From: Acutalibacteraceae bacterium
GTDB taxonomy: Bacteria; Bacillota; Clostridia; Oscillospirales; Acutalibacteraceae
NCBI GenBank assembly: GCA_045540355.1
Contig: JAZQHB010000008.1
Span: 31,183 to 95,182 of the forward strand
DNA length: 64,000 nucleotides
Direction: 5' to 3'
Below are positions 11,431 to 59,511 of this stretch, in pieces. The notes beneath the pieces were generated by a model. The model saw only the letters and a program-made list of their open reading frames with translations. It did not search any database and was not told the origin of the DNA. The position numbers were made by a program, and so were the translations under genes. Every line of letters starts with the position of its first letter. The first letter of the stretch is position 1.

Positions 11431-12357
11431 CTATCTTAATTTCATCGGCAACAACGGATTTTCATTTTCCGTTGCAGAAGAAACAATATCTTCGTACTCT
11501 TCTCCAACTTCCAACCGCCTAGCCATAACCACCATTCTGTTTGTACCGCTACCGTGTAATTCTACCGAACAGCTGGATAAAGTAATATAGGCATCATCAA
11601 TGGTATTTTCGATTGGTACATTTATCCAACTTCTGCGAGATACTTCGCCCATATACCACTCGTAGTCCTGCATAGCAACAAATTCTGTATTATCAAAGTA
11701 AATGAATGTATCTGTATCAGAAGTATCAACTAAATAGTAAGCAAAAATCAACCACTGGCTTGTACCCTCTTCGGTAATGATTTCAACAATCGGGTGTTCT
11801 TTGTAATATTCTATATCACGGTAGTTATTCAAATCTCCGAACACATCAAATCCGTTCAGACGGATATTGTGACCGTATATGATGCTGTTACCACTGTCAC
11901 GGGATAAATCACTGCCGATTGACAGAAACGGTACTCCGTGACTGTTATGCTCTTTATTAAGGTCACGATTAAGATAATACCCTTCATCAGCTGGCGTATA
12001 CATAATCGGGTGGTTCAATACGCTATCATTGATACGAATAAAGCCAACTACATCTTCGTTATAGTCCATATAAGTCTGTAAAAGGCTCATATCACTATCA
12101 TTTACGGTGCAATACTGCGTCGGCTCATATCCGTCTTCATACAAAACGCCGTCCTGCAAGCCCGTATTCGCCCCATTTAGACCGTTTTCTTCGTTTGATG
12201 CGGATTTTATCGACCTAACAGCTGAAATCCCGCAAATCGTCAAAATAAGAACGCCTACGCCTATCACAACACCGATGCGTCGCAACGGTTTACTTTCCAG
12301 TTCGTCACTTTCATCGTATTCAAAATTAAAATCATCTTCGTCCATATAATTTTTCAT
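11431..12357 (-). CDS. srtB: Sortase, class B-like
   Basis: N-terminal TM anchor; catalytic His (IIYGHNI), Cys (ITLSSCS) and Arg (NRMVVMARR). The VGFIRINDSVLNHPIMY...YYL block is typical of class B. Confidence 0.8.
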   Translation of the reverse strand: MKNYMDEDDFNFEYDESDELESKPLRRIGVVIGVGVLILTICGISAVRSIKSASNEENGLNGANTGLQDGVLYEDGYEPTQYCTVNDSDMSLLQTYMDYNEDVVGFIRINDSVLNHPIMYTPADEGYYLNRDLNKEHNSHGVPFLSIGSDLSRDSGNSIIYGHNIRLNGFDVFGDLNNYRDIEYYKEHPIVEIITEEGTSQWLIFAYYLVDTSDTDTFIYFDNTEFVAMQDYEWYMGEVSRRSWINVPIENTIDDAYITLSSCSVELHGSGTNRMVVMARRLEVGEEYEDIVSSATENENPLLPMKLR

Positions 12358-12431
12358 ACATTTTCTCCCTTCATTGGTTCGTATAAGTATATTATACTTT
12401 ATTCGTCTGCAAAAGGCAAAAAAACAGACAG

Positions 12432-12532
12432 TTGCAGGTTAGAAATTATTGTGTTAGAATAAAATTATAAAATTTATCAACAATATGGACTAACAATATA
12501 GAGATTTTCCGTAGGGAATTTCTCTTTTTTTC
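12432..12532 (+). promoter_or_regulatory. Promoter-leader-terminator module, copy G
   Basis: TTGCAG-N17-TAGAAT, then GGACTAACAATATAGAGATTTTCCGTAGGGAATTTCTCTTTTTTT. Same core as the copies at 37.7, 40.9, 44.5 and 63.2 kb. Confidence 0.6.
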
Positions 12533-12618
12533 AAATAGGGGTATGTCCCGAAAATAATCGGGGTATTCCACTATCCCCGTCGATATAGATAACAACACAA
12601 AGAAAGGAAAAGAAAAAT

Positions 12619-13176
12619 ATGAAAATATTTGAAAATGACAACTGGGAAAAATTATCCCTCAATAATGAAGTAGTACAGTACGGATATTACTATCCGTATA
12701 GAAATCCGGACGGAAGCGTAAACCCTAATTTCTACAAGGATCGTATTAGTGGTTATATTTTAGATGTAAAAGAAAAGAAGGAAAAAGCACTTAACTATTT
12801 TTACAATGTACTTAATACCGAGATTTGTAAAAATGTTACAATCTGCGTAGTTCCGTCGCATACCGCTTCTTCAACTAATCAATCTGGCATTTCCATACTG
12901 GCAAGAAGACTTGCAAATGATGAAAGGGTGGATAAAGTAGATTATCTTTTAAGAAGTAAATCTATTAACAAATTAGCGTCCGGTGGCGACAGAGATTTAT
13001 CTATTCACTTGGAAAGCATCAGACCAAACGAAGAAATGAGTATTTCGGGCGATGTTGTTCTTTTAGTTGACGATGTTACTACTTCCGGTGCATCTTTGCA
13101 GGCGTGCAAAGAAATTCTATTAAAGAATGGTGCTGAAAGAGTTGCAATGCTCGCATTGGGAAAATCTATCAGATAA
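12619..13176 (+). CDS. Type I phosphoribosyltransferase-fold protein (ComF-like)
   Basis: PRPP-binding loop VVLLVDDVTTSGASL near the C-terminus; 185 aa; no N-terminal zinc finger. Confidence 0.7.
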   Translation: MKIFENDNWEKLSLNNEVVQYGYYYPYRNPDGSVNPNFYKDRISGYILDVKEKKEKALNYFYNVLNTEICKNVTICVVPSHTASSTNQSGISILARRLANDERVDKVDYLLRSKSINKLASGGDRDLSIHLESIRPNEEMSISGDVVLLVDDVTTSGASLQACKEILLKNGAERVAMLALGKSIR

Positions 13177-13188
13177 GGAGGTGTTTTT

Positions 13189-13869
13189 ATGGATATAAAA
13201 AGTTGCACAATTAAAGACACTAACTATCCTAAAAAGCTACTCTCCCTATCTTCTCCACCGAAGACACTGTACTATATTGGCGATATAAATATAACAGCCA
13301 AAGATATTGTCGCAGTAATAGGAAAGAGAGAAGCAAACGAAAAATCACTAACCTTATCCGAAAAAATCGGAAATGAGTTGGCAAAAAAAGATTTCATAGT
13401 TTTGAATGGATTAGCAATCGGCTGTGATACAAAAGCTATTGAAGGTGCTTTATTAGACAATGGTAAAGTAATTGCTGTTATGCCCTGTGGTCTTGATGAA
13501 ATATATCCTAAATCAAACCGTATGCTGGCAGAAAAAATCATAAAAAGCGGAGGGTGTATCATAAGCGAATATCCTTGCGGTTCAAAGCCTCAAAAGTATA
13601 CCTTCGTGGAAAGGGACAGATTGCAGGCAGGACTTGCTGATAAGGTAATCGTAATAGATGCAGAAATCAAAGGTGGAACGATGCACACGGTAAACTATGC
13701 ACTCAAATTAAGAAAAGAAATTGGGTGTATTATGGAAGATAATGCGGTATCTCCCGCAGGTAACGAATATTTATGCAAATCACAAAATTGTGATGCTTTA
13801 AACAATATTCATAGCGTTTTGACTTTCGTAAAAAAACCCGTATATAATCAGCTTTCACTATTCAGCTAG
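13189..13869 (+). CDS. dprA: DprA/Smf-like DNA-processing protein (Rossmann/SLOG domain only)
   Basis: VAVIGKREAN...LNGLAIGCDTKAIEGAL...VMPCGLDEIYPKSN...ERDRLQAGLAD...GGTMHTV matches the DprA core. Confidence 0.8.
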   Translation: MDIKSCTIKDTNYPKKLLSLSSPPKTLYYIGDINITAKDIVAVIGKREANEKSLTLSEKIGNELAKKDFIVLNGLAIGCDTKAIEGALLDNGKVIAVMPCGLDEIYPKSNRMLAEKIIKSGGCIISEYPCGSKPQKYTFVERDRLQAGLADKVIVIDAEIKGGTMHTVNYALKLRKEIGCIMEDNAVSPAGNEYLCKSQNCDALNNIHSVLTFVKKPVYNQLSLFS

Positions 13870-13884
13870 AATTAAATCAACATA

Positions 13885-13916
13885 AAAGAGGTTCGTATAA
13901 ACGAACCTCTTTTTTA
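13885..13916 (+). terminator. Intrinsic terminator (AAAGAGGTTCG..CGAACCTCTTTTTT)
   Basis: Seen in sequence after the dprA stop. Confidence 0.8.
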
Positions 13917-13920
13917 TTAC

Positions 13921-13956
13921 AAAAAAAACAGAAGCGGGCTTTTTACACCCACTTCC
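13921..13956 (-). terminator. Intrinsic terminator for the minus-strand lipoprotein gene
   Basis: GAAGTGGG..CCCGCTTC hairpin followed by T8 on the minus strand. Confidence 0.65.
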
Positions 13957-13979
13957 GTTTCTTTACGATTTTTCGTTGT

Positions 13980-15038
13980 CTATTCGGAAACTTCCTCGTA
14001 GGAAGCGATAGCAACCATTTTGTAGATTGTAGAAATATCTTCTTCGCTTACATCTTTGAGTGCATCAGCATACGCATAGTAAGTAACACTTGCACGATAG
14101 CCTAATGCCTCTCCTTTGCCCTCATATACAGCCCAGTAAGTCGATAAATACGCTTCACAATCGAAAGTTGCATTACGACATACAACTCCGTTTGCATCGG
14201 TGTAAGCATCGCCTTTCCAAGATGCACCGGACACGCGGTAAATCGCGGGATCAAGTCCTAAAAGAGTAAGAATATCACTCTGATAACCGTCCCAAGTAGG
14301 TGTAGGGGAAGTCTGCGGTACATATACCGTCTTAAATCCCTCAATCTGCCAACTGTCTACATAAGCATCACTTGCAGTAAATATACCGTCGATAGGATAA
14401 CCACTTCTCCAAGAAGGTTCTGACTGACCGCTACTTACTAATTCTCCGCTGATTGTATCGTCTTTTTCATCAACATTGTTGTAATAAGAGATTGTCTTAA
14501 CCTGCGGAATGTAGGGTGCGGTTGTTCTTGCACCATACTCCACTCTTTCTGTAACGGTTGTGGTGATAGGCACAAGGTCAGACCAGTTAAAGATGTCACC
14601 CTTTAAGGTGTACTTCTTTCCGGTGGCATCAGAAATCCACTCGATAGAAGTTTCAGCATCTTTCTTATCTTCTACTTCTACATCAACAGTATGTGCTACT
14701 ACTGACATAATTTCCGAAGTCTGATATTCAGCATTTCCGGTGTACTTATACTTTACGCCGTCCACTTCAATCATTTCGGGAATTTCAAATCTCAATCCGT
14801 CTTCCGTTTCGGAATAGAACTGATATTCCATTGTAATAATATTCGCTTCTTCATCAGAAGCATCTTCGCCAGCTTCGCTTGTCTGTTCGCTACCGCCTTC
14901 GATATTATCTTCGCCTGTTACTCCCGCAGACGCATCTTCCGTTGCAGGAGTTTTATTACAACCAGTAATCAAAGTGGCAAGCATCATACTTGACAGCAAA
15001 ATCACGCCTAATTTTTTAGCAATGTATTTCTTTTTCAT
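13980..15038 (-). CDS. Lipoprotein, function unknown
   Basis: Signal peptide with lipobox LITGC; acidic N-terminal linker. Confidence 0.75.
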   Translation of the reverse strand: MKKKYIAKKLGVILLSSMMLATLITGCNKTPATEDASAGVTGEDNIEGGSEQTSEAGEDASDEEANIITMEYQFYSETEDGLRFEIPEMIEVDGVKYKYTGNAEYQTSEIMSVVAHTVDVEVEDKKDAETSIEWISDATGKKYTLKGDIFNWSDLVPITTTVTERVEYGARTTAPYIPQVKTISYYNNVDEKDDTISGELVSSGQSEPSWRSGYPIDGIFTASDAYVDSWQIEGFKTVYVPQTSPTPTWDGYQSDILTLLGLDPAIYRVSGASWKGDAYTDANGVVCRNATFDCEAYLSTYWAVYEGKGEALGYRASVTYYAYADALKDVSEEDISTIYKMVAIASYEEVSE

Positions 15039-15056
15039 ATTATGTCTGCCCCTTTC

Positions 15057-17783
15057 TTACTCTTCTTCATTCTTTGTTTCTTCAACAGCTTCAACAGCTT
15101 TACCCAAAGTATCTTCAATATTGACTGTTTCCGATGTGGCATTTTTTAACTGTTTTTTCTTGCGAAGATATAGTAAAATCACGCCACCAACACTTACAAT
15201 ACCAACAGTACCGATAATAGCATAAATCATCAAGCCATTGGTTTCTTTTTCAACAGCATCTTCCGTCGCTAATACTACGGAATATCCCTCTTCGCCACTG
15301 TCTTCTGTCTGCCAGTTATTTCTTCTCCAAGTGTTTTCGTCGAAGGAAATTCTTAATAAACCGTAACGGGCAGGAGTGTCGGGTTTGTCGGGTGTCGGAG
15401 TTTTAGGAACCGGACCGTCGTTATAAAATACCTTTGAGTATGTAACACTTTCATCGGTTGAATTATTTGGCAATGTAGCTGTGAAAGTAAATTCTTCATC
15501 AGACATTGTATATCCCGCAGGTGCAGAGATTTCTACAATTTTGTAATCAACACCGAAGGGTAAATCCAAACCAAAGTTTACTTTACCGTCAGATGCAGAA
15601 GTACCAGTTGCGATAACATCGCCTGCATTAACAATAACGGTGCCTTCATAATTCACAATATCGCTTTCAGCACTTAATTCAAACTTCGCACCAGCAAGGT
15701 TGTAAGAAGTACCAGTAATCTTCTTGGTTACATCTACAACAACATCTTGCTTATCATTAAGGATTGACTGTGTGATTTCGATAATAGGTGTGCTATCATC
15801 AACAAATTCTACACTGAACTCAATCGGAGTATCGTCCAAAATATAACCAACGGGGGCTACGGTTTCAATCATCTTGTAATTACCAAGAGGTAAATCTTCC
15901 AAAACGCCTTTGCCGTCTGCACCAGTTACGATTGTTCCAACCAAGTCGCCGTCAGAATAATACTTTGTTCTTTCGCCGTTAGCATCTAACTGCATATCGT
16001 GAGTAAGAATATCGCCTACGGCATATACTTCAAATTCTGCACCAACCAAACCTTTTTCTTCCCATACAAACTTTCCGTTTTCAAAAGCTGTAAGAGTAGG
16101 TCCAGTCTTTGTAAGTTCTACTCTACCCATTGCAGGAGTGTTCTGATATTCTACGGGGATAAACATTTCTCCCGTCGTTTCGTCTTTTTCAAAAGTTGCA
16201 CTACTTCCTACTACTACCGTGGGATAATTGGTATCAAGAATATAGTTGGGAGGTGCTGATACTTCTTCAATACGATATTCGCCTAATTCAAGAGGCTGGG
16301 GAAGAATTAAGTAACCTTCGCTGTCAGTCTTGAATGTAGTATGTTCTGTTACAGTAGGATATGTGGTGTACTGTACCACATATTGATTATTGGTAATATC
16401 AAAAATCTTAAACTCGATATTTTCCAAAAGGATAGACTTACCAGTTGTGCTATCCATTTTTGTAATCTTTAATTTCGCTTCAATCTCTTCGTTGATAATA
16501 ATTCTCCAAGTTTGAGGCTCTGTGGGCTTATGTTCGGTAACGGTTACTTCAAAAGGTTCACACTCGAAATATCCGTCGGGTACATCAACTTCTCGAATAA
16601 CATAAGTACCATAAGGCAACGGTGCTGATTTCGCATAACCAGTTGCGTCAGTATACATTACTGTACTTCCGTCTTGTGCAAGGGGTACTGCATTTGCACC
16701 CTCGAAATTATAGGTTCCGTCTGCGTTTAAGGTAAGTCTTGATTTCAAATATGCGGAAAAACCGGAAACCAAAGGAACGGCATCGGTATCTTCTCCGTCA
16801 AAACCTGCCTTTATAATCTGAAAAGGCTGTTTTTTAACCTGCTCTCTTGAAGTGATTACGGGATTATCAACAACTACTTCAACTTCTCCGGTCACAATAT
16901 CTACTGTACTGCCCGGAACCGCTGTGATATTTACATTATATTCTGTGGGATCAATCATATAACCAACAGAAGGTGTGATTTCTTTCACATAATAGGAACC
17001 GGGAGGCAGATTACTAAAACCACATACACCACTTGCATCAGTAGTAGCTTGCATAATTAGCGAACCAGCAGGAGCTAACACTGTCTGCCCTGTGTCGTCA
17101 CGGGGATCCAAAATATCTGCTCTTGCATAAAGTCCATATACTGCACCCTGCAACTTTGCATCGCCCTGTGCAAGGGCGGTTTCACTGTCAATCTTTACGA
17201 TTTTTATATCATATACGCCACCGGGAGTTGTTTCTCCTTCGCCAAACATCGCAATTATCTGCAAATTGGGACCGCCAGTGCAACATATAGCAGTACCCGT
17301 ATAATCGGACATTGCGCACTCTTGAATAAAAGCATAAATACCACTATCAACCATTTGTTGAGGTGTGATACCTGCAATACTTCCAGTAAAAGCATAACCT
17401 AACGCAATATGCGTACAAAGGTAACGGTATTCATCATTATCACCAAAATACTTTTGGGTAATGTCGTTGACACCGCCATAGCCATTACAGAAAATCTTAA
17501 TCAATAAAGGATTTTCAGCAGAAGTAATAGTAAAACTTTCGTAAGTACCATTTGGCAAACCGGATTTCAACGGTTCGATACAATATGCGATTTCTCCGTT
17601 AATTGTATATCGTTGAGTTCGATATGTACTTCCGGGGAAATAGGTACTGTACTGAATTTCTGCATCACTACGGTTTACTTCCGCTGTGTCTGCATAAGTA
17701 GGCAAAACACTGCCTGCCACAATTCCTAACATCATCACAAAGGATAAGCAGGACAACCAAAACTTTTTCGTTTTCTGTTTCAT
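15057..17783 (-). CDS. Large surface adhesin with a possible N-terminal thioester domain, at least 6 Cna-B/SpaA-type repeats and a C-terminal TM anchor
   Basis: Signal peptide. Repeated G.Y...E...P.GY motifs (GSYYVKEITPSVGY, GTYVIREVDVPDGY, GEYRIEEVSAPPNY, GNYKMIETVAPVGY, DYKIVEISAPAGY). AYCIEP fits the [YF]C[ILV][DE] thioester Cys motif. No LPXTG. Confidence 0.75.
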   Translation of the reverse strand: MKQKTKKFWLSCLSFVMMLGIVAGSVLPTYADTAEVNRSDAEIQYSTYFPGSTYRTQRYTINGEIAYCIEPLKSGLPNGTYESFTITSAENPLLIKIFCNGYGGVNDITQKYFGDNDEYRYLCTHIALGYAFTGSIAGITPQQMVDSGIYAFIQECAMSDYTGTAICCTGGPNLQIIAMFGEGETTPGGVYDIKIVKIDSETALAQGDAKLQGAVYGLYARADILDPRDDTGQTVLAPAGSLIMQATTDASGVCGFSNLPPGSYYVKEITPSVGYMIDPTEYNVNITAVPGSTVDIVTGEVEVVVDNPVITSREQVKKQPFQIIKAGFDGEDTDAVPLVSGFSAYLKSRLTLNADGTYNFEGANAVPLAQDGSTVMYTDATGYAKSAPLPYGTYVIREVDVPDGYFECEPFEVTVTEHKPTEPQTWRIIINEEIEAKLKITKMDSTTGKSILLENIEFKIFDITNNQYVVQYTTYPTVTEHTTFKTDSEGYLILPQPLELGEYRIEEVSAPPNYILDTNYPTVVVGSSATFEKDETTGEMFIPVEYQNTPAMGRVELTKTGPTLTAFENGKFVWEEKGLVGAEFEVYAVGDILTHDMQLDANGERTKYYSDGDLVGTIVTGADGKGVLEDLPLGNYKMIETVAPVGYILDDTPIEFSVEFVDDSTPIIEITQSILNDKQDVVVDVTKKITGTSYNLAGAKFELSAESDIVNYEGTVIVNAGDVIATGTSASDGKVNFGLDLPFGVDYKIVEISAPAGYTMSDEEFTFTATLPNNSTDESVTYSKVFYNDGPVPKTPTPDKPDTPARYGLLRISFDENTWRRNNWQTEDSGEEGYSVVLATEDAVEKETNGLMIYAIIGTVGIVSVGGVILLYLRKKKQLKNATSETVNIEDTLGKAVEAVEETKNEEE

Positions 17784-19322: not shown

Positions 19323-19715
19323 ATGCGTAGGGAACGAATAACGCCAAACAATGTAATACAAATCAACCGAATATTTGGTTTCAAAAAACGAAACCTTATT
19401 GAAGGTGTGGTATGGGCGGTAATTGCCGGACTGATAATCAACGCAATTCCATTCGTTGTGAAAGTAAAATGGATAGTTATTATCTGCGTAGGCATTGCCT
19501 TAATTATAGCAAATGCTTTCGGCATCAATGGCTATCCCGTATCAGCAACGGTCTTAAACTGGCTCAAATACCGCTACTATCTTAATCAATTTTCTTATAG
19601 GAGGTTAAACAAAGATGTTGGAGAATACAAAAAAATCACAGACGAAAAAAACAGGATTAGAACAATTACGGCAACTCGTTCAATCCAAAACATCAGAAAA
19701 TTCTTCGGACAGTAA
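19323..19715 (+). CDS. PrgI/TcpE/VirB3-like small T4SS membrane protein
   Basis: 130 aa, two hydrophobic helices, immediately upstream of (and overlapping) virB4. Confidence 0.6.
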   Translation: MRRERITPNNVIQINRIFGFKKRNLIEGVVWAVIAGLIINAIPFVVKVKWIVIICVGIALIIANAFGINGYPVSATVLNWLKYRYYLNQFSYRRLNKDVGEYKKITDEKNRIRTITATRSIQNIRKFFGQ

Positions 19716-22251
19716 AGTAAGTGTTCTCGGCAATGTCTTTGGGAAACTCAATAAGAAAGAGGAACAGCAACTCCACTTCGCCCAAGATATGATTGATGTA
19801 GAGGATATTGTAGCAGGACTTATTTTTACCAAAAGCGGTTCCGTGGTTAAAATCCTTGAAGTCCTACCACTTAACTTTACGGAAAAAGACGATTTTACAA
19901 AAGATATGATTGCAGATGCGTTTGGTTACGGATTAAAGCGTGGACCAAAAAACGCCCACATTAAAGTAATGCGTTCTCAATCCGACATCTCTCCTTTTAT
20001 CCGAAATGTCAGAGATGCTATGGCTGATGAAACCGACGAGAATTTAAGATTGCGTGTAGAAGATTATTTAAAGCACACACAACATCTGCAAGAGAGAAAT
20101 ACCCGTAAAAACCGTTTCTTCTATATCTTTGAATATGAAGGCGATGAAAACGGAAAGAAAAGTGCTGACTGGGACGAAGTATATACAAATATGAGGCAGA
20201 TTACCTACTCGGTTGCTACTGCCTTGCAATCGACTGGAAACTATGTTATTGACTACGCCTTAACGGGCGACAACATTTCCATTGCAGAAATATTGTACTC
20301 ACACTTCAATCCGAAGACTTCAAAAAAAGAACCGTTCAGCGAAAGACAGCGTAAGGTTATTGAAGCAATCAATTACATCAACCGGACAGAAGGCACTAAC
20401 ATATCGGCACCGTTGGAGGATTACTTGGCACCGAGAGGCTTACGCTTTGGCAAATGGGATTATGCGGTAATGGACGGTATGTATCACACTTACCTTTCCT
20501 TGTCAGACGAAAGTTTCCCGAAAGTAAGCTATGCAGGATTATTCACACAAAACCTTATGGAAGGCTTGGACGACTGCGATTTAGATATTTATTACAAGGA
20601 AAAGCCCCGCGAGATGTCGTTACGATTACTGGAAAGAACGGGAACCATATCGCGAGGCGTTGCACTCAATTATATCGGCGACAATCAGAAGCAGGAAAAT
20701 TTGCACAGCACATCAAGTAATGCGGAATACATAAGGGCAAGAATGAAAGACGGCGAAGAAGAACTGTATGATGTTTCCATTATTTTAACGATGCGTGCAA
20801 ATACACTGACAGAGTTAAGGGAAATGAAAAAGACCTACTTGCGTAATAAAAGGTCTGACAACTGTTCTTTTGAAAGTTGCTTTATGAAGACGCAGGAATA
20901 TTGGAAAATGGTTACTCCCACAATGAGTATCAATCAGCAGATATTTAGGGAAAACGCCCGCAATATGACAAACGACGGACTGGCAAATCTTTATTGCTTT
21001 AACTCTTACGAGATGTTTGATCCTGCGGGTGCTTGTATGGGTAAGACCGTAAAAGAAGACACACTCTTCTCTCTTAATAACTTCGATACCGCTAAATTCC
21101 CGAACCCGCATATATTCATAGCAGGTACTTCGGGTGCAGGTAAAACCTTTACGGAACTGATGCTGACAAGCCGTATGCGTATGCACGGTAGCCGTATTGT
21201 ATATATCTTACCGTTGAAAGGACACGAATATAAAGATGCCGTTCTTTCAATCGGTGGCGAATTTATATCTCTTCGCCCCGGCGGTAACAACTGTATTAAC
21301 ATTATGGAAATCAGACCGGAAGGCAGTGCAAAACTGGACGGATTAGACGATGCGGAAATCGCGGAAGAATTGGCAAAGATGCCTTCACTGCTCTCCAAGA
21401 AGATAACCAGTATCATCACTTGGTTACGATTACTTGTCGGCGAAGAAGACAGATTAACCGTAGAAGAAGTCGGAGAAATAAATGCTCTCTTGCAGGAGTT
21501 ATACGGAAACTTTGGCATCACGGAAGACAACAACTCCATTTGGCAGAACAAACAGAAAGGCATCTTAAAGCGTATGCCTATCATCGAAGATATGTATAAC
21601 GCAATGCTATCTAATGAACTGCTCTCCCGCCGTACTCCCGTCTTAAAGACTTGGGTATTCGGTAACTGCAAGAATATGAACCAGCAGACAAATGTTGATA
21701 TGACAAAGAAAGCGATTGCTTTCGATATTAACGAAGATTACATCGGCGAAGAATTACTCCCTGCATTTATGTATATCGCTTTCGATGCGGGATATGACAT
21801 CTGCAAGGAAGACGAATACGAAACCTGCGTAATCGCACTGGACGAAATTTGGAAGCTGTTGCAAATCTCTGCTTGTGCAAAACAGATTGACAAAATGATT
21901 AGAATACTTCGTGCGTATGGTGCGTCGGCAATTACTGCCACACAGGATATTGATAAGTGCCTTGAAAATGAGTTTGGTAAATCCATTCTCCAAAACTCGG
22001 CAATCAAGATATTCCTTAATGTCACCAAAGAAGAAATGGAGGTATTGGAAAAATCCGTTACCTTTACAGAAGAAAACAAACAAAATCTTCTCAACGCACC
22101 GAAGGGTATCGGCTTCGTAACCTACAAGTCGGAAAAAGTATTTGTTCGATTTATTGCGTCAGAATACGAAGAAGAACTCTACACTACCGACATCAATAAG
22201 AAGCGTGAGTTAAGACAACGGCGTATGAATAAGCGTACCGCATACGCATAA
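19615..22251 (+). CDS. virB4: VirB4-family T4SS ATPase
   Basis: 878 aa. Walker A FIAGTSGAGKTF; Walker B-like VIALDEIW. SD AGGAGG 10 nt before ATG 19615. Confidence 0.9.
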   Translation: MLENTKKSQTKKTGLEQLRQLVQSKTSENSSDSKVSVLGNVFGKLNKKEEQQLHFAQDMIDVEDIVAGLIFTKSGSVVKILEVLPLNFTEKDDFTKDMIADAFGYGLKRGPKNAHIKVMRSQSDISPFIRNVRDAMADETDENLRLRVEDYLKHTQHLQERNTRKNRFFYIFEYEGDENGKKSADWDEVYTNMRQITYSVATALQSTGNYVIDYALTGDNISIAEILYSHFNPKTSKKEPFSERQRKVIEAINYINRTEGTNISAPLEDYLAPRGLRFGKWDYAVMDGMYHTYLSLSDESFPKVSYAGLFTQNLMEGLDDCDLDIYYKEKPREMSLRLLERTGTISRGVALNYIGDNQKQENLHSTSSNAEYIRARMKDGEEELYDVSIILTMRANTLTELREMKKTYLRNKRSDNCSFESCFMKTQEYWKMVTPTMSINQQIFRENARNMTNDGLANLYCFNSYEMFDPAGACMGKTVKEDTLFSLNNFDTAKFPNPHIFIAGTSGAGKTFTELMLTSRMRMHGSRIVYILPLKGHEYKDAVLSIGGEFISLRPGGNNCINIMEIRPEGSAKLDGLDDAEIAEELAKMPSLLSKKITSIITWLRLLVGEEDRLTVEEVGEINALLQELYGNFGITEDNNSIWQNKQKGILKRMPIIEDMYNAMLSNELLSRRTPVLKTWVFGNCKNMNQQTNVDMTKKAIAFDINEDYIGEELLPAFMYIAFDAGYDICKEDEYETCVIALDEIWKLLQISACAKQIDKMIRILRAYGASAITATQDIDKCLENEFGKSILQNSAIKIFLNVTKEEMEVLEKSVTFTEENKQNLLNAPKGIGFVTYKSEKVFVRFIASEYEEELYTTDINKKRELRQRRMNKRTAYA

Positions 22252-24488: not shown

Positions 24489-26735
24489 ATGGGACTTAAA
24501 GATTTCTTCAACAAAGCAACAACCGACGAACCAAAAGAGATAGATAATGTTACTCCGTTAAACGAATTGTATGATGATTTAAAAGAACACCAAAAAGCCG
24601 TAATTTTCTATATTGTGGCAAGTGTAATTGTGGGTACCTTCCTGTCGGGACTGTTATACCAGTATATCATCACAATCTTCAATGAAGAACCGATTTACAT
24701 TCTCGCATCGTTCCGTTACGGAATTTCAAAGTCAACTATACTAACGCTTGTGATTATATTCCTGCTGATAGGTGGCGGGTTTAAGGCATACAGGTCGTTG
24801 CAGAGGAGTTATGTAAAAAACTACAAAGACAATTACTTAAAGAGTAAAAGTGAAACCTATGGCGGTTCCCACTTTCAGACGGAAGAAGAATTAAAAGAGA
24901 ATTTTGATTATTTCGATAATATTGAAGATACCAACGGAGAAGTATTCGGTATGGACGAATATGACAAAATTCTCACTTTCAAATACCCGCCGGGAATGAA
25001 CCATAATAAGATTTATTTCGGTGCCCCCGGAAGTGGTAAATCAGCCTGCGTTATTAAGACTGACCTTTACCAAGCGATGTTGCGTGGGGAAAGCGTTGTA
25101 CTTACAGACAGTAAGGGTGCGATATATGCAGAAACCAGTGCGGTTGCACGAAAGCTGGGATATAAGGTTAGGGTATTCAACTTAAAGCCCAAGGAGTTTA
25201 AAAACTGTGACGGCTACAATATGTTTAAGTCTATCCAGCCCGGCGACGATGATATTGATGCAAAAGCTGATGTTATAGCCAACCTTATTATCAAAAACAC
25301 CAGTACACCAAGAGAAGAAGGCGATTACTGGGGCAAGAACGAATTTAACTTACTGAAATGTGTGATTATGTATGTATCTACCAACGCATCGTACATTCAG
25401 ACTAATCAAAATAACTTGCCCGGAATGTTTAATTTTATATCCTCCAAATCCGCAAAAGATATGAAAGGTATATTTACTCTTATTCCGAAAGATAACCCGA
25501 TAAGACAGTGTTATGACATTTTCGCGGAAGCTGATGAAAAGAACCAAGGACAGATTATTAACGGTGCTGGTATCAGATTAAGCAAATTAACAAATGTATA
25601 TTTACAGCAGGCACTCTCCCACGATGAAATTGATCCGGTGGAACCTATGAAGCGTAAGTGCATCTATTATGTTATTATTTCCGATACGGACGACAGTTAT
25701 AAATTCTTGTCTGCACTCTTCTTCTCTACGCTTTTTAATGAACAGTGTGATTATTCTGATAAATTAAGCGGAGAAGCGAAAAGAAAGCAGTTGCCGATTA
25801 ACTATCTTTTGGACGAATATTATGCTACGGGTGGTATTTACGCCCTGCCGATTAAGATTTCTACTCTCCGAAGTCGTAAAATTGGACTTACTATTATCTT
25901 GCAGGATAAAGGACAGCTTACCTCGATGTATGAGGAAGGTGAAGTATCAACCATTCTTAACTGCTGTACGATTAAGGGACTGTTATCTACAAACGACTTG
26001 GTAACAGCGGAGTATTTCTCGGAACTGTTAGGTTCGCAGACGATTGTTGTTCAGAACGATAGAGTATATGAAAGCAGTGCCGATATTATCCACGCTAGAA
26101 ATACCGTGCAGAAGACATTTGGCGAAGGCGAAAGACCGCTGATGTACCCGTCAGACTTAATGAACGGTAAGTTATCAAGGGACGAATTGATTTATGTAAT
26201 TGCTGGTATGCCTCCGGTCAAACTCCGAAAGTATTTCTCTGAAAAAGGTGGCGTTTCAATCCACCCTCTTGAAATTCAAGGAGAAGAATTAGGAAGAAAG
26301 ATGCCACACAGACACCGCCCACGCTGGCGAAAGATTTTAGAGGACGGAATTGCAGTTCCCGAAGAAAAAGAGAAAAAAGCAGAACCTACTACTACTGCTA
26401 CTCCACCGCTTACGGCAAATAAACCAAGACCTGCCACTCCTACTCCCGTGCAGACGACTAAAAAGACCGAAACGACTGATAATACTGGAAAGGCTGGAAC
26501 TGTGGGAGAGAAGAGAAATAAATATACGCAAAGTTCTCCCGTAAATAATCCTACGGCACAAAAAGTAGAAACACCGTCTGCAAAGAATAATCCTGCACCC
26601 ACGCCTGCCACTCCTACTCCGCAGGCAAACACAAAACCGCAGGAACGGAACAAGAAATCAGAAACGGACGAAGATGCTATCCCGAAAAGAAAGACCGTTT
26701 GGAAAGAAGAAAAGATTGACGAAGACTTGTTCTAA
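24489..26735 (+). CDS. virD4: VirD4/TraG/TcpA-type type IV coupling protein
   Basis: Two N-terminal TM helices; Walker A FGAPGSGKSACV; Walker B-like YLLDEY; Pro/Thr-rich C-terminal tail. Confidence 0.9.
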   Translation: MGLKDFFNKATTDEPKEIDNVTPLNELYDDLKEHQKAVIFYIVASVIVGTFLSGLLYQYIITIFNEEPIYILASFRYGISKSTILTLVIIFLLIGGGFKAYRSLQRSYVKNYKDNYLKSKSETYGGSHFQTEEELKENFDYFDNIEDTNGEVFGMDEYDKILTFKYPPGMNHNKIYFGAPGSGKSACVIKTDLYQAMLRGESVVLTDSKGAIYAETSAVARKLGYKVRVFNLKPKEFKNCDGYNMFKSIQPGDDDIDAKADVIANLIIKNTSTPREEGDYWGKNEFNLLKCVIMYVSTNASYIQTNQNNLPGMFNFISSKSAKDMKGIFTLIPKDNPIRQCYDIFAEADEKNQGQIINGAGIRLSKLTNVYLQQALSHDEIDPVEPMKRKCIYYVIISDTDDSYKFLSALFFSTLFNEQCDYSDKLSGEAKRKQLPINYLLDEYYATGGIYALPIKISTLRSRKIGLTIILQDKGQLTSMYEEGEVSTILNCCTIKGLLSTNDLVTAEYFSELLGSQTIVVQNDRVYESSADIIHARNTVQKTFGEGERPLMYPSDLMNGKLSRDELIYVIAGMPPVKLRKYFSEKGGVSIHPLEIQGEELGRKMPHRHRPRWRKILEDGIAVPEEKEKKAEPTTTATPPLTANKPRPATPTPVQTTKKTETTDNTGKAGTVGEKRNKYTQSSPVNNPTAQKVETPSAKNNPAPTPATPTPQANTKPQERNKKSETDEDAIPKRKTVWKEEKIDEDLF

Positions 26736-33811: not shown

Positions 33812-33903
33812 ATAATGCGAATATAATCTATCCGTTATGAATACACTAATGGTATAGAAAAAAAGAAAAAGGTACTCCTTGCAGGAGGGGAACGACGACG
33901 AAT

Positions 33904-33952
33904 ATATTGTTGTTGTTTATATAATTTAATATATCTATATAAACAACAATAT
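33904..33952. repeat. AT-rich imperfect inverted repeat (ATATTGTTGTTGTTTATATA / TATATAAACAACAATAT)
   Basis: Seen in sequence just upstream of the iterons; possible unwinding or hairpin element. Confidence 0.6.
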
Positions 33953-34019
33953 TAAAATTCATATTATAATTCCGAAACCCACAAACCCAGTATTTTCTAG
34001 GGCTTGCGGGTTTTTTTGA

Positions 34020-34800
34020 CGGAAAAAATCGGTAAAAGATACGGAGTAGCGTGGTAAAAGATGCGGAGTAGTGCGGTAAAAGATACAGAGTAATTCGGTA
34101 AAATTTGGCAGGATTAAATACGGAGTAGTGCGGTAAAAGATACGGAGTAATTCGGTAAAAGATACGGAGTAGCGCGGTAAAAGATACGGAACAATTCGGT
34201 AAAATAGACGATTTAGCGGAAAAAAACAGTAAAAACAGCAATTAAAAAATAAGTGCTGAAATCGTAAGATTTTGAAAAGAATGTAAAAAAAGGGTAAAGG
34301 TACGGAAAAAATCGGTAAAAGATACAGAGAAAAACAGTAAAAGATACGGAATAATTCGGTAAAAATAGGGTTTATTACGGAGTAATTCGGTAAAAAACGC
34401 AGGAAAAACACCATATGATTACCCAAAAACTACATAAAAATAAAAAAAAGAGATAGAAAAAGCCTTACTTACGGAGAAATTCAGTAAAAGATGCGGAGTA
34501 ATTCGGTAAATATATGATTTATAACGGAGAAAATCGGTAAACATAATGTAGAAATATTCCTTGAAAAAAGTAAAGTTAATGAGCCAAAGTATTGTATTAC
34601 CGAAAATATCCGCTATAAAATCGTAAGTTTTTGAAAAAATCAATATTTAGTGTTTTTATAATTTCAACACATACAAAATAAGAAAAATCCCCCACCTTTT
34701 TAACGGAAAAAAACAGTAAAATAGTAATTGACAAGGTATAATAGTAAGCCTTATAATAAAATTGTTTTTAACGGAAAAAAACAGTAAAAAGCAAATGAGG
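34020..34800 (+). repeat. Iteron array (at least 15 copies of CGGTAAAAGATACGGAGTAnnn, 22-bp phase); putative theta-type oriV
   Basis: GGTAAAAG cores at 34031, 34053, 34075, 34097, 34132, 34154, 34176, 34198, 34314, 34336, 34358, 34389, 34483, 34505 and 34536. Degenerate copies flank the rep promoter. Confidence 0.85.
34700..34790 (+). promoter_or_regulatory. rep promoter (TTGACA-N17-TATAAT) bracketed by a direct repeat TTAACGGAAAAAAACAGTAAAA
   Basis: Seen in sequence; the arrangement is typical of Rep autoregulation. Confidence 0.6.
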
Positions 34801-34811
34801 GGATTACAAAA

Positions 34812-36032
34812 GTGGAAGAAAACAAAAAAAATGAGGAAGATACTTCTTTGGCGATTTATGTTGAAAAAGAAGATATAGTTGCAAAAATATGCAATGTTAT
34901 ATTAAAAGCAAAATATAAAACAACGCTATTGGAACAAAAAGTTTTACTTATGTCGCTTGCCCGTATCAGTAATTATAAAATAGAAAAAGGAACCGGGGCA
35001 TTAGTATCTACGCTTGATGTTGCTGATATAAAAAATTGTATCGGAAGAAAAGGAAACTCATTATATGATGAATTGGAAGAAGTAGCCGATAATATGACAG
35101 ACCGCAAAATTGCATTTTCGGATCCCGAAAAAAAAGAGTTTGATTATATGTCGCTTATCATTCGTGCAACTTGTAAAAACGGTAAATTTAAGATTTATTA
35201 TAATCCGTATTTAAGAAATTACATATTAGACATCACTACTAACTATACACCACTTATGGAAAAGATAACAATGTCTTTTAATAGCCTTCATTCGTCCCTG
35301 CTTTATCAAGCATTAAAGCAAAAAGCATATACACCGGGCGAAAAGATTGATAAAACAAGTTTTGAAATAAGAACTTATGAGTTCGAGTACAATCTTGCGG
35401 AACTTTTACTGGACCTTGGATTAGTTGATGCAAATGCAGAAGAGGTAAAAAATATACTTAATAAATCAAAGACACCGGACTACGAAAAAGCTGTGGCAGT
35501 TGCAAAAGAAAAAAAATATAAAGCGTGGTATGATTTTGAAAGATATTCACTTCGTCCGGCAATTAAAGAAATCAATGAAAAAACAGATTTGCGGGTATCA
35601 TACGAAACCATAAAAAGAGGTAGAGGGGGAAAAATAACCGCATTATTATTTACAGTAGATGTAATACCTACGATAAGAACCGATTTACTCTCAAAAAAAG
35701 AGGAAGAAGTAATCACGATAACCGAAGACCAAAAAGACGAATACATAGACTGGTTATCAGACCTTATCGAAACGCCGTTAAAAGTGAAAGACCTGCGTAC
35801 TATCGCAGAAGAGGCAGGATATTCGCAGGAGAAAGCAGAAAAAGCCTACGCCATATTAAAATCCACTCCGCAGGTTGATAATGTGGTAGGATTTATGATT
35901 TCGGCGATCCGTAACAATTATTCCAGTTCCGGCGGGCAAAGCAATAAGGAAAGCAAAAAGAGCGCAAACGATAACATAATGAAGCAAGATTATGATATTG
36001 AAGCAATCGAAAAGGATATTTTGGCAAATTAG
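34812..36032 (+). CDS. rep: Plasmid replication initiator (Rep_3/RepB-like)
   Basis: Immediately downstream of the iterons. N-terminal KAKYKTTLLEQKVLLMSLARI resembles initiator winged-helix proteins. GTG start behind GAGGGG. Confidence 0.7.
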   Translation: MEENKKNEEDTSLAIYVEKEDIVAKICNVILKAKYKTTLLEQKVLLMSLARISNYKIEKGTGALVSTLDVADIKNCIGRKGNSLYDELEEVADNMTDRKIAFSDPEKKEFDYMSLIIRATCKNGKFKIYYNPYLRNYILDITTNYTPLMEKITMSFNSLHSSLLYQALKQKAYTPGEKIDKTSFEIRTYEFEYNLAELLLDLGLVDANAEEVKNILNKSKTPDYEKAVAVAKEKKYKAWYDFERYSLRPAIKEINEKTDLRVSYETIKRGRGGKITALLFTVDVIPTIRTDLLSKKEEEVITITEDQKDEYIDWLSDLIETPLKVKDLRTIAEEAGYSQEKAEKAYAILKSTPQVDNVVGFMISAIRNNYSSSGGQSNKESKKSANDNIMKQDYDIEAIEKDILAN

Positions 36033-57027: not shown

Positions 57028-57423
57028 ATGAGTTTAAAAGCAAAGCATAAATCACTGTCGAACAAAGTAAGAGAGCAGATACATAATAAATACGCAGGAC
57101 ATTGTGCGTATTGTGGCTGTGAGATCACCTGCAAGGAAATGCAGGTGGACCATATAATACCAAAGTATCAAGAAGAAATAAGAGAAATCAATACTGATGC
57201 TATGGAAAACTATATGCCCGCTTGTAGACAGTGTAATTTTTATAAATCCACTTTTTCAGTAGAAGATTTTAGAGAAAGATTAACGACGGTGATGATGAAA
57301 AATCTACAAAAGAACTTTAATTACCGATTGGCTATAAAGTATGGGCTGGTTTCAGAGCATATAAGCCCAGTAAAGTTCTATTTTGAAAAATATAATGAAC
57401 GGAAAGGAGATGCTAAATCTTGA
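57028..57423 (+). CDS. HNH endonuclease
   Basis: CAYCGC...VDHIIPK...NYMPACRQCNFYK (CxxC / DH / N / CxxC). Confidence 0.8.
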   Translation: MSLKAKHKSLSNKVREQIHNKYAGHCAYCGCEITCKEMQVDHIIPKYQEEIREINTDAMENYMPACRQCNFYKSTFSVEDFRERLTTVMMKNLQKNFNYRLAIKYGLVSEHISPVKFYFEKYNERKGDAKS

Positions 57424-57749
57424 CAGAAGTAAATTTAAACACAGAGAAAGCAATGTTGGTAGTAGATATGCCTATCGACTGTATGCACTGCTATTTAAGT
57501 GTTCCCGCCAAGGAAAAACATACAGGACAATTTTGTTTGAAGTGTGTAAAAGAACCAACGCTGATGATTACCAAAGAAGAAGCAAAAGTAAAACCTCACT
57601 GGTGTCCTTTAAAGCCTGTACCGATACCGCAGGTTCATTACTGTACGGACAATGAATTTCAGCGTGGTGCGAAGACTGGGTATAATGCCTGCATCACGGA
57701 AATATTAAAAGAAGAAAAGGAGAAATCAGCAAATGAAAAAGGTTTTTAA
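57420..57749 (+). CDS. Cys-rich (zinc-ribbon-like) small protein
   Basis: CMHC...CLKC...HWCP; TTG start, so the exact start is uncertain. Confidence 0.45.
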   Translation: MTEVNLNTEKAMLVVDMPIDCMHCYLSVPAKEKHTGQFCLKCVKEPTLMITKEEAKVKPHWCPLKPVPIPQVHYCTDNEFQRGAKTGYNACITEILKEEKEKSANEKGF

Positions 57750-58434
57750 GAATATTAAGGTAATTATATTGTTTATGGCACTTATTACAGCAGGGATTGG
57801 GTTAATTCTTTCCGTAATTAAGTACAATAAAATAACGAATTATTATTCGGAAAAAGTAGTTGCAGTAAAAGTTGACGAAATAGAAGAAAGCTATGATTAT
57901 GTTGGTTGGCTGAATATAATAAAGACAGAAACTCACTACAACTATGTTTACGAATATGAGTGGAACGGGGAAATATATAAAATTGAATTAGAAAAATCAG
58001 AAACAAAAAACTTATGGAATATATTAAAAACCATATTTACAGGCACCGGAAATGGCGAAAAATTGGTATGTCACTTAAACCCGAAAACACCTAATGAAGC
58101 TACACTGGAAACAACAAACGAGGTTGCCATATATTCTGTTTGTTTCTTCATCACGCTAATGTGTACTGCTTACACAACTATCTGTGTATTTGAAGAAAAC
58201 GCAAAAATCAGAAAGGGAGAAGATTATATTAAGAAAATGGTATGGACTTGCCCCTGCTGTAAAAGTGAAAATGTTACGGCAAGAGAAGTAAAACACATAA
58301 ACAAATCGTCCCGTGTTATAAATCAAAAAAGGTGGTTGTTCTGCCGTGATTGCGATTATCAAGAAGTAAGGCTTGAAAAGGAAGAAACTTATGATGCGTC
58401 TGATGTAAAGGGGAATAAAAATGAAGAGAATTAA
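57733..58434 (+). CDS. Two-TM membrane protein (DUF3592-like beta-rich loop) with C-terminal zinc ribbon, paralogue 1
   Basis: YYSEKVVAV...YEYEWNGEIYKIE and CPCCKS...CRDCDY. Paralogous to the next gene. Confidence 0.7.
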   Translation: MKKVFKNIKVIILFMALITAGIGLILSVIKYNKITNYYSEKVVAVKVDEIEESYDYVGWLNIIKTETHYNYVYEYEWNGEIYKIELEKSETKNLWNILKTIFTGTGNGEKLVCHLNPKTPNEATLETTNEVAIYSVCFFITLMCTAYTTICVFEENAKIRKGEDYIKKMVWTCPCCKSENVTAREVKHINKSSRVINQKRWLFCRDCDYQEVRLEKEETYDASDVKGNKNEEN

Positions 58435-59314
58435 AAATTTATTTAAACCACAGGTCTTATTACTGTTTTTTGCAACAATCGTTTCCGCTGTACTGGTAGC
58501 AACAAGCTATACAAATTATAAAAAGACCACTGCATATTACAGCGAAAAAGTAGTCGGGGAGATAATCGAAGTAGAAAAAATAAAAGAAAATTATATTTCC
58601 TTCTTCGACACCATAAATACTAAAATTACATATAAGGTTATATATGAGTATGAATGGCAGGGAGAAACCTATCACACCGAAGTAAATAAGGGACTTGGAT
58701 TGTTCTTGAACTATTTTGAGAAGGGGACAAAAGCTATATGCTATATAAATGCAGAAAACCCAAGCGATGCAGTTGTAAATGTATCTGATCCCGTTAAACC
58801 ATTTATTGTATTATTTTTTGCTTTTCTTATGAGTTTCATATTGGTTGCGATATATTGTCTTTTTGACAATGATAAAGAAAGAGAAATAGAAGCGATATGT
58901 ACTTGCCCGTATTGCAAAAGTGAAAAGGTAGGCGTAAAAGATGTCTTAAATGATACCGCTATTACTCCTTATATCCAAAATATAAGAGAAGCAATGAAAA
59001 ACGAAACCGATGTAGATTTGAGAAATCGTGTAGAAGATTATTTAAAATATATTCAACATCTGCAAAAAACTAGAAAAATTTGGGCGTATTGTCAGATATG
59101 CGGTAGGACAAGCAAAGAAAGAGAAGTACCGCTTGAAACTTCTGACGATGAAATAATCAAACTGGCAACAGCTGAATGGAATAATCGGGAGAAAAAATTA
59201 TCTTTTGATGAACTGGAAGCTGTATATCTTGCAAGATACATTAGGAGAAAAGGAAATAAAGCATCAGAGGACGAAGTAGAAGACTTCATTAACTGGTGTC
59301 GAGATAATTTATAA
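58421..59314 (+). CDS. Paralogue 2 of the membrane/zinc-ribbon protein, carrying a VirB4-derived insert
   Basis: YYSEKVVGE...YEYEWQGETYHTE; CPYCKS...[ITPYIQNIREAMKNETDVDLRNRVEDYLKYIQHLQKTRK]...CQICG. Confidence 0.7.
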   Translation: MKRIKNLFKPQVLLLFFATIVSAVLVATSYTNYKKTTAYYSEKVVGEIIEVEKIKENYISFFDTINTKITYKVIYEYEWQGETYHTEVNKGLGLFLNYFEKGTKAICYINAENPSDAVVNVSDPVKPFIVLFFAFLMSFILVAIYCLFDNDKEREIEAICTCPYCKSEKVGVKDVLNDTAITPYIQNIREAMKNETDVDLRNRVEDYLKYIQHLQKTRKIWAYCQICGRTSKEREVPLETSDDEIIKLATAEWNNREKKLSFDELEAVYLARYIRRKGNKASEDEVEDFINWCRDNL

Positions 59315-59318
59315 TAAT

Positions 59319-59355
59319 AATATTCCCTTACGGTAAGTGGGGGAATATTTTTTTA
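59319..59355 (+). terminator. Intrinsic terminator (AATATTCCC..GGGAATATTTTTTT)
   Basis: Seen in sequence. Confidence 0.8.
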
Positions 59356-59511
59356 CAACAATGCTAGTTTTTTGCTATTTAGGAAAGATTAAAGTATAAT
59401 ATACTTATAACATTAAAGAAAGGAAACAGCACTTCTATTGTATCAACACAGACGAAGAATTTAAGGAATACATCGCAAAAGAAGGCATCAAAGCAGTAGA
59501 GGATAATAATA

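Follow-up and report, generated by a model that had tools for sequence, protein, structure and literature searches.

In plasmid R388's type IV secretion system (T4SS), the N-domain of the VirB4 ATPase TrwK alone forms the VirB4–VirB4 dimer interface (1734 Å2), is wrapped by VirB3 (2805 Å2), and binds the tails of VirB8; co-evolving residue pairs connect TrwK positions 253–255 and 305–312 with VirB3, and positions 24 and 211–213 with the VirB8 tails (PMC9259494). Much of the N-domain surface is therefore interface. Here, we describe par2, a gene on a conjugative plasmid from an Acutalibacteraceae bacterium, whose product carries an insert homologous to two helices of a VirB4 N-domain. The DNA analyzed, hereafter the window, is a stretch of 64,000 nucleotides (nt) of contig JAZQHB010000008.1, which is ~105 kb in length. 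par2 differs from TrwK in that it has neither the ATPase domain nor the rest of the N-domain, and the Gram-positive-type N-domain cannot be aligned by sequence to that of the Gram-negative TrwK.

A second comparison is with exclusion proteins (TraS of F, and Eex of SXT/R391, against TraG/VirB6) and fertility-inhibition factors, which are small, fast-evolving, allele-specific inner-membrane proteins that interfere with T4SSs (PMC11493245). These factors share no sequence with their target, which is VirB6-like or a coupling protein rather than VirB4, and their genes usually adjoin that of the target. In the limited literature covered, we found no described exclusion or fertility-inhibition factor built from a captured piece of the machine. 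Pieces of the N-domain do exist outside full-length VirB4, as shown by P0011 (locus L011), a stand-alone N-terminal VirB4 fragment of 206 amino acids (aa) with the same hairpin; however, P0011 is soluble and unanchored, and looks like what a deletion left behind, with VirB4 residue ~249 joined to the VirD4 start, rather than like an insertion into another protein.

The remainder of par2 resembles two known families. Like DUF3592 proteins, whose function is described in the literature as unclear, it has a beta-rich domain between two transmembrane (TM) helices. With the Lar family, of which Lar of the Escherichia coli Rac prophage is the prototype, it shares two CxxC knuckles separated by a variable loop, a GVKD motif after the first knuckle, a W-Y-C motif before the second, and LA..WN.R. 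Known Lar members are soluble proteins of 60–120 aa, whereas par2 is anchored by DUF3592, holds a foreign hairpin of 36 aa in the loop, and has an additional helical tail of ~40 aa. No description of a fusion between DUF3592 and a Lar-like ribbon was found in the literature, and our incomplete coverage of publications on DUF3592, on fertility inhibition involving VirB4, and on entry exclusion yielded nothing comparable. Both families are thus known, while their fusion and the captured VirB4 hairpin appear to be undescribed. Our main finding, which we regard as almost certain, is that par2 belongs to a very small family combining a DUF3592 anchor with a probably cytoplasmic Lar-like ribbon, in one allele of which a VirB4 hairpin was captured in frame from a non-resident donor and then likely spread by recombination.

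A VirB4-derived segment in par2

The features on which this finding rests are as follows:

57733–58434, plus strand: par1, a DUF3592-type membrane protein of 233 aa, identified as an open reading frame (ORF) homologous to par2
58421–59314, plus strand: par2, 297 aa, comprising TM1, a DUF3592 beta domain, TM2, a Lar-like ribbon with an insert, and a C-terminal helical tail (ORF, Pfam, AlphaFold2)
58961–59068, plus strand: the VirB4-derived insert, par2 residues 181–216, ITPYIQNIREAMKNETDVDLRNRVEDYLKYIQHLQK, a predicted helix-turn-helix hairpin (BLASTP, AlphaFold2)
19615–22251, plus strand: VirB4-type T4SS ATPase, 878 aa (C-terminal domain against PDB 4AG5, Pfam, NCBIfam)
19987–20094, plus strand: the homologous VirB4 segment, residues 125–160, the second and third N-domain helices between two beta strands (BLASTP; secondary structure from AlphaFold2, local elements only)

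Pairwise BLASTP of par2 against VirB4 returned a sole significant local match, between par2 172–219 and VirB4 116–165 (27/50 identities, E = 3e-13). In its ungapped core, par2 181–216 against VirB4 125–160, 23 of 36 residues and 80 of 108 nucleotides are identical. When all window ORFs of at least 60 aa were compared with one another by BLASTP, par2/VirB4 (E = 3e-11) was the only cross-gene match besides par1/par2 and one repeat pair. The longest exact match, the 20-mer CGTGTAGAAGATTATTTAAA, occurs exactly twice in the window, at 20053 and 59027, against 0 occurrences expected from shuffled sequences. The insert was found in four independent assemblies and is therefore not an assembly artefact.

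A preliminary description of this DNA had aligned a par2 loop segment (58961–59077) with VirB4 (19987–20109), counting about 23 identities over the first 36 positions, had placed an identical 20-mer at 20053–20072 and 59027–59046, and had considered the rest of par2 unrelated to VirB4. These coordinates and counts were confirmed, and similarity to VirB4 is confined to residues 181–216, so that par2 is not a VirB4 family member. That the segment was copied also stood, whereas its proposed length of roughly 40 aa did not: the copied part comprises 36–37 aa (residues 180/181–216), and the flanking VKDVLND and RKIW are native to par2, since they are also found in insert-less homologues.

AlphaFold2 predicted two helices in the insert, 182–193 and 198–215, with block-mean values of the predicted local distance difference test (pLDDT) of 67–81. 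In the VirB4 counterpart, helices were predicted at 122–135 and 142–164 (local elements only), giving a helix-turn-helix in both proteins. The insert corresponds to exactly one complete secondary-structure unit, in frame.

The direction of transfer, from VirB4 to par2, follows from the distribution of the segment. In the VirB4 proteins of Vescimonas pMM35_02, Butyrivibrio pCY186, and MT836123, where overall identity is 27–35%, the segment is ungapped and conserved (R..M..ETDEN..L...DYL). It is cleanly absent from the close par2 homologues P0004 (GVKDVVGDT/NRKIWAYC, the stroke marking the insertion point), P0005, and P0008, and par1 also lacks it. Only short and imperfect microhomology was detected at the junctions (left, GAYAY; right, ACN-NGN-AAA, encoding TRK), from which we infer a history compatible with an illegitimate or template-switch copy. 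An alternative in which the insert-less alleles arose by independent deletions was rejected as less parsimonious: the segment is not native to either the Lar or the par family, it is missing from par1 and P0008 as well, and its distribution is accounted for by the mosaic pattern of identity described below.

According to the preliminary description, the segment had been copied from the plasmid's own VirB4. DNA identities over the 36 codons indicated another allele of the same clade. Identity of the insert to the resident VirB4 is 74%; to L007 (the VirB4 on the same metagenome-assembled genome (MAG) contig as the insert-bearing P0003, a sister plasmid) it is 71%, and to L011 (the more distant VirB4 of P0011) 70%. 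Among the VirB4 genes themselves, the window and L007 sequences are 81% identical, and either is 61% identical to L011. QNIREA.KNETD and LQK are common to the insert and P0011, and RVEDYLK..QHLQ to the insert and the resident clade; 31 of the 36 insert residues match at least one of the three VirB4 proteins, and five match none. Three-point arithmetic on these identities (108 nt only) gave the insert a private branch of ~8.5%, no longer than those of the real VirB4 genes, and hence no sign of decay in this small sample. The insert is thus phylogenetically intermediate, and its donor was an unsampled or ancestral VirB4 allele of the same clade, not the present resident allele. Ongoing gene conversion from the resident VirB4 was also considered and rejected, since the insert stays almost unchanged among plasmids with different resident alleles and shares with VirB4 no exact match longer than 20 nt.

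The par family and its membrane-anchored ribbon

Two parts of par2 surround the question of where the hairpin is displayed:

58448–58864, plus strand: the par2 membrane module, residues ~10–148, with TM1, a predicted extracytoplasmic beta-rich DUF3592 domain, and TM2 (Pfam match 66–121; AlphaFold2)
58904–59191, plus strand: the par2 Lar-like zinc-ribbon domain (CPYC, 58904–58915; CQIC, 59090–59101; LATAEWNNR, with WNNR at 59177–59188)

par1 and par2 are tandem paralogues (63/188 identities, 34%, E = 3e-28). The end of par1 overlaps the beginning of par2 by 14 nt, and the par2 ATG is preceded by AAGGGG, which resembles a Shine-Dalgarno sequence. Both proteins have two hydrophobic helices around a beta-rich stretch (YYSEKVV...YEYEW), followed by CxxC...CxxC; the hydrophobic stretches lie approximately at 7–32 and 118–151 in par2 and at 4–32 and 131–154 in par1. 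The DUF3592 profile (PF12158) matched par2 with 29.4 bits (E = 1.3e-6), above the gathering score of 25.3, and par1 with 19.9 bits, below it. The AlphaFold2 model of par2 (mean pLDDT 64) comprises helix 10–37, strands within 43–120, helix 126–148, strands within 153–176, helices 182–193 and 198–215, strands within 217–237, and three C-terminal helices. Foldseek searches with this model gave weak matches to giant-virus DUF3592 proteins, a match to a phage 'Anti_R_Lar' protein (TM 0.68), and nothing significant against the PDB. The par2 ribbon is likely cytoplasmic and membrane-proximal, as suggested by the positive-inside rule (the N-terminal tail has four K/R and no acidic residues), the two TM helices, and the position of the Cys4 ribbon after TM2.

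Motif and profile comparisons identified the ribbon. par2 conforms to the pattern of a Cys4 ribbon followed by A..WN.R (CPYC, CQIC, LATAEWNNR). An exhaustive phmmer search with par2 150–297 against 1.8 billion representatives retrieved three soluble proteins of 73–118 aa, P0012–P0014 (E = 2e-5 to 2e-4). These score 27–36 bits against PF14354 (cut-off 28.6), with P0013 (33.3) and P0014 (36.5) passing, and their inter-knuckle loop varies naturally in length. When the cytoplasmic domains of the par family were aligned to these three Lar proteins with hhalign, the probability was 99.2% (E = 9e-20), with CP.C, GVKD, W.YC..CG, and LA..WN.R in common. Intact par2 gave no match to PF14354 at E ≤ 0.1; with the insert removed, it scored 16.5 bits (E = 0.01) over profile positions 5–57 of 58, under the 28.6 cut-off, and par1 scored 14.4 bits (Lar_restr_allev, E = 0.047). 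On this basis, we class the par2 ribbon as a divergent Lar-like (PF14354) domain, not as a certified Lar. The ribbon of par1 is truncated and degenerate (CPCC, 58249–58260; CRDC, 58342–58353): its four cysteines are present, and it has neither the WNxR motif nor the VirB4 insert.

These results put names to parts that the preliminary description had left without one: its zinc ribbon is a Lar-family domain, and its membrane module is DUF3592. The tandem architecture that it proposed, TM helix, beta domain, TM helix, and zinc ribbon, was borne out by the paralogue alignment, the helices, and the CxxC pairs, and its presumed cytoplasmic, membrane-tethered placement agrees with the likely topology given above. 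The inter-knuckle loop of par1, taken to be 22 aa, measures 27 aa; that of par2 is 58 aa.

In our searches, the par family comprised eight clusters at 90% identity: six from 5.8 billion proteins, par1 from a profile search, and P0008 from the representative library. A search with the family alignment added only par1 itself. One further match, P0009 (844 aa, 14 tandem repeats), was discarded as spurious and due to low complexity. Every par locus fetched was syntenic with the window, and the only taxonomic labels seen were Lachnospiraceae MAGs. Three of the eight known alleles carry the insert: par2 of the window, P0002, and P0003.

The par locus is a mosaic: genes have been duplicated in tandem and vary in copy number, membrane modules and tails have been exchanged, and one member has lost the ribbon. 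Between the par2 genes of the window and L001, DNA identity is 69–88% over most blocks and 93–100% across the ribbon and insert. P0002 and P0004 have a common C-terminal tail, and P0003 and P0005 a common linker insertion; within each pair, insert status differs. A distribution that cuts across the other blocks in this manner points to a single origin of the insert, followed by homologous exchange of the tract; three diverged plasmids have almost the same tract, and recombination is its probable means of spread. Within the family, conservation is highest in the Lar-like tail. The window and L001/L002 have par1, whereas L003, L004, and L012 do not, and in P0008 a tail like that of P0004 is joined to a membrane module of a third type.

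Separately, P0006 (L006:3664–4341) was found to lack the whole ribbon, both knuckles and the loop, while keeping the membrane module and the C-terminal tail, a sign of modular gain and loss.

What the captured hairpin may do

Interpretation of the insert involves the T4SS genes of the window, which include two further components:

19323–19715, plus strand: a PrgI/VirB3-like small membrane protein, overlapping the VirB4 start by ~100 nt
24489–26735, plus strand: a VirD4-type coupling protein (Pfam T4SS-DNA_transf, E = 5e-38)

In the window VirB4, the C-terminal domain matched VirB4 of Thermoanaerobacter pseudethanolicus (PDB 4AG5) with E = 1.9e-19 as a single sequence and 1.5e-51 with a family profile. 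The protein also matched the NCBIfam VirB4-like CD1110 family (E = 8e-42) and the Pfam families AAA_10 and P-loop_TraG, and its Walker A motif, GTSGAGKT, lies at residues 504–511. Since its scores against the NCBIfam VirB4-like models fall well under the cut-offs, it is a divergent member. As expected of VirB4 loci, it is encoded with a PrgI/VirB3-like ORF and a VirD4 coupling protein; proteins of 204 and 439 aa are encoded between VirB4 and VirD4. Among annotated elements, those nearest to the plasmid are megaplasmids of Vescimonas, of Subdoligranulum, and of Butyrivibrio proteoclasticus, the last with 35% identity in the N-domain; one close relative was found among GTDB genomes, in a Lachnospiraceae MAG from water-deer caecum, and P0010 in the representative library is 89% identical to the window VirB4 over a full-length alignment. 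A word-indexed protein search with the VirB4 N-terminal 350 aa returned no match even though P0010 exists, so this negative is not evidence of absence.

The 19323–19715 product is homologous to the N-terminal part of a Vescimonas 'PrgI family protein' (E = 7e-7) and to ORFs upstream of VirB4 in L007 and pCY186. In Vescimonas fastidiosa pMM35_02 (L008:3605–6433), the PrgI-like protein and VirB4 are fused into one protein of 942 aa, annotated only as 'PrgI family protein'. The position of the PrgI/VirB3-like gene immediately upstream of VirB4, together with this fusion, suggests that the VirB4 N-domain is held at the cytoplasmic face of the membrane and makes the PrgI/VirB3-like protein a candidate partner of this domain.

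Two related loci gave observations of their own. On pCY186 of B. proteoclasticus (L009:3779–6463), an intact VirB4 ORF of 894 aa is missing from the PLSDB gene table; this incomplete table lists only the last 669 nt, as a 'conjugative DNA transfer family protein' beside an IS110 transposase. In L011:1724–2413, on a Logan contig of SRR6824179, the fragment P0011 is followed directly by VirD4. As tblastn similarity continues past its stop to VirB4 residue ~249, an internal deletion appears to have removed the ATPase domain and two downstream genes.

We propose that par2 acts as a membrane-proximal cytoplasmic mimic that docks on, or competes at, the inner-membrane platform of a T4SS, a reading that we hold tentatively and rate somewhat short of an even chance. 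The hairpin would be displayed directly after TM2 at the cytoplasmic membrane face, where the VirB4 N-domain of a T4SS would sit beside the PrgI/VirB3-like protein, and would reproduce a surface of that domain as an interaction module. par2 could then dock on, or compete for, a partner of the N-domain: another VirB4 N-domain, the PrgI/VirB3-like protein, or a VirB8-like tail. Negative modulation of T4SS assembly, either of its own plasmid or of related co-resident plasmids, would be the likeliest result; plain recruitment of the Lar-like domain to the machine is an alternative outcome. The mosaicism of the locus, which evolves like a conflict gene, was counted toward the plausibility of mimicry. 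Decoy, docking, exclusion, and fertility-inhibition roles had already been put forward as hypotheses in the preliminary description. The stronger proposition, that such membrane-tethered mimics, by a captured hairpin in a Lar-like scaffold, set or sabotage T4SS assembly in their own or rival plasmids and thereby form a new class of conjugation modulator, is in our view rather doubtful.

Several observations weigh against mimicry. In the PDB, neither phmmer nor profile searches aligned anything of VirB4 but its C-terminal ATPase domain, with none reaching the N-domain, and no sequence alignment to TrwK covers the N-domain, so that the R388 interface positions cannot be transferred without a structural alignment. 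The AlphaFold2 prediction of VirB4 1–500, made from three sequences, had a pLDDT of 34 and is unusable as a model of the N-domain. The hairpin belongs to the N-domain fold between two strands, and its conserved residues may be owed to packing rather than to partner binding. The insert hardly varies among plasmids that differ from each other at 6 of 36 residues in the VirB4 segment, and thus does not track the resident allele; with only 3 nt differences among carriers, its retention says little about selection. Moreover, the host loop tolerates length variation, the insert is carried by the minority of known alleles counted above, and par2 is separated from the T4SS genes by 36 kb, at the end of an accessory-gene operon.

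Several of the same facts fit a neutral or tolerated passenger, whereby a microhomology copy or template switch placed a self-folding hairpin into a permissive loop, and its presence on three plasmids reflects recent hitch-hiking. We consider this the chief rival, only slightly less probable than mimicry. Loop length is variable both in the Lar family and within the par family, the few nucleotide differences among carriers indicate a young allele, and short imperfect microhomologies occur at both junctions. The locus is mosaic throughout, other blocks also being 98–100% identical, five of the eight alleles lack the insert, and the insert does not follow the resident VirB4. What a passenger would not lead one to expect is that the copied piece is exactly one whole secondary-structure unit in frame, that it shows no excess of private substitutions over genuine VirB4 genes, and that it was kept after transfer into a background 12–30% divergent in DNA. 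Useless DNA tends to be deleted from bacterial genomes, which was also counted against this explanation.

It is unlikely that par2 is a membrane-tethered Lar-type anti-restriction or establishment factor with no link to the T4SS, in which the insert only tunes activity through spacing or oligomerisation. King and Murray reportedly described restriction alleviation by the Rac Lar in 1995. To our knowledge, such alleviation has been shown only for the Rac Lar, and the Pfam name says nothing about par2; this too was counted against an anti-restriction role, as was the absence of any PADLOC match for par1, par2, or six neighbouring genes, and the failure of par1 and par2 to match any PHROG family of known function. 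The homology of the ribbon to PF14354, the conservation of the Lar-like tail, and the setting, an accessory array with an HNH nuclease and, upstream, a methylase-like ORF and RecD2/RecG, all accord with this role. However, at 16.5 bits against a cut-off of 28.6, par2 falls short of the Pfam threshold, membrane anchoring is not known from any Lar-like protein, and the VirB4 origin of the insert would be left unexplained.

Entry exclusion, with par2 in the recipient recognising an incoming related T4SS through the VirB4-like hairpin and blocking transfer, appears very improbable: VirB4 is an ATPase in the cytoplasm of the donor that is not known to enter the recipient, and the par genes are 36 kb from the T4SS genes, whereas known exclusion genes usually abut their VirB6-like target. 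par2 also has no homology to known exclusion proteins, although it is a small, rapidly evolving cytoplasmic-membrane protein of a conjugative plasmid, and there is a precedent in TraS/Eex and their target TraG, whose exclusion determinants are cytoplasmic (PMC11493245).

Lastly, short, charged helical sequences can look alike, but neither a chance or convergent resemblance of two amphipathic helices nor a chimera from assembly is at all likely here; both are effectively refuted by the E value of 3e-13, the 74% DNA identity, the exact 20-mer against 0 expected, the clean-edged presence/absence polymorphism, and the four independent assemblies.

Plasmid setting and significance

The following further features of the plasmid were recognised:

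59319–59349, plus strand: a terminator-like hairpin of 13 pairs followed by a T run, 5 nt past the par2 stop (consensus scan only)
59372–59400: a promoter-like site after the hairpin, with 10/12 matches, the best of the region (consensus scan only)
34812–36032: a Rep3-type initiator
In the window: ParA-like and ParM-like partition genes
In the window: a C39-like peptidase
In the window: RecG-like and RecD2-like helicases, a methylase-like ORF, and an HNH nuclease; the helicases and the methylase-like ORF lie upstream of the par genes

The par genes sit in an extended run of small, co-directional accessory genes, the HNH nuclease among them, at the end of an operon ~36 kb from VirB4 and ~31 kb from VirD4. 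As the terminator-like hairpin is followed by the promoter-like site, par2 appears to be the last gene of its transcription unit. The order of the operon is HNH, a cysteine-rich ORF of 109 aa, par1, and par2. The 109-aa ORF (57420–57749), directly upstream of par1, has several C..C pairs and no family match; in the relatives, ORFs of 102–105 aa occupy its position.

Elsewhere in the window, a DprA-like (DNA_processg_A) gene was observed at 13189–13869, and a surface-adhesin cluster at 11431–17783 encodes a thioester-domain/SpaA protein of 908 aa and a sortase, with possible functions in mating adhesion. Within 33846–34426 on the minus strand, a pair of overlapping ORFs read in different frames share 46% identity over 86 aa (E = 9e-13), which suggests an internal DNA repeat immediately upstream of the Rep3 initiator gene; this repeat is possibly iteron-like or origin-associated.

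By megablast, the locus had no match among PLSDB plasmids or INPHARED phages, and a search for related loci with par2 in IMG/VR was likewise negative. A degenerate DNA pattern spanning both copies of the segment had zero matches in JGI metagenomes and IMG/VR, which indicates that the lineage is absent from those sets.

Our results show Lar-type zinc ribbons occurring as predicted cytoplasmic domains of membrane proteins. Whatever its function, the insert provides a clean, datable case in which one gene captured, in frame, a sub-domain segment of an unrelated gene within one plasmid lineage, apparently followed by spread through recombination. Were it neutral, it would be no more than a curiosity in the mosaicism of plasmid genes. 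Should the hairpin be functional, no plasmid factor before par2 would have been shown to act on a T4SS through a piece of the VirB4 ATPase that it carries, and helices 2 and 3 of the Gram-positive-type VirB4 N-domain, a region without any structure, would be marked as a protein–protein interface. A peptide of 36 residues on a membrane anchor would then offer a handle with which to probe or inhibit assembly of the Gram-positive conjugation machine.

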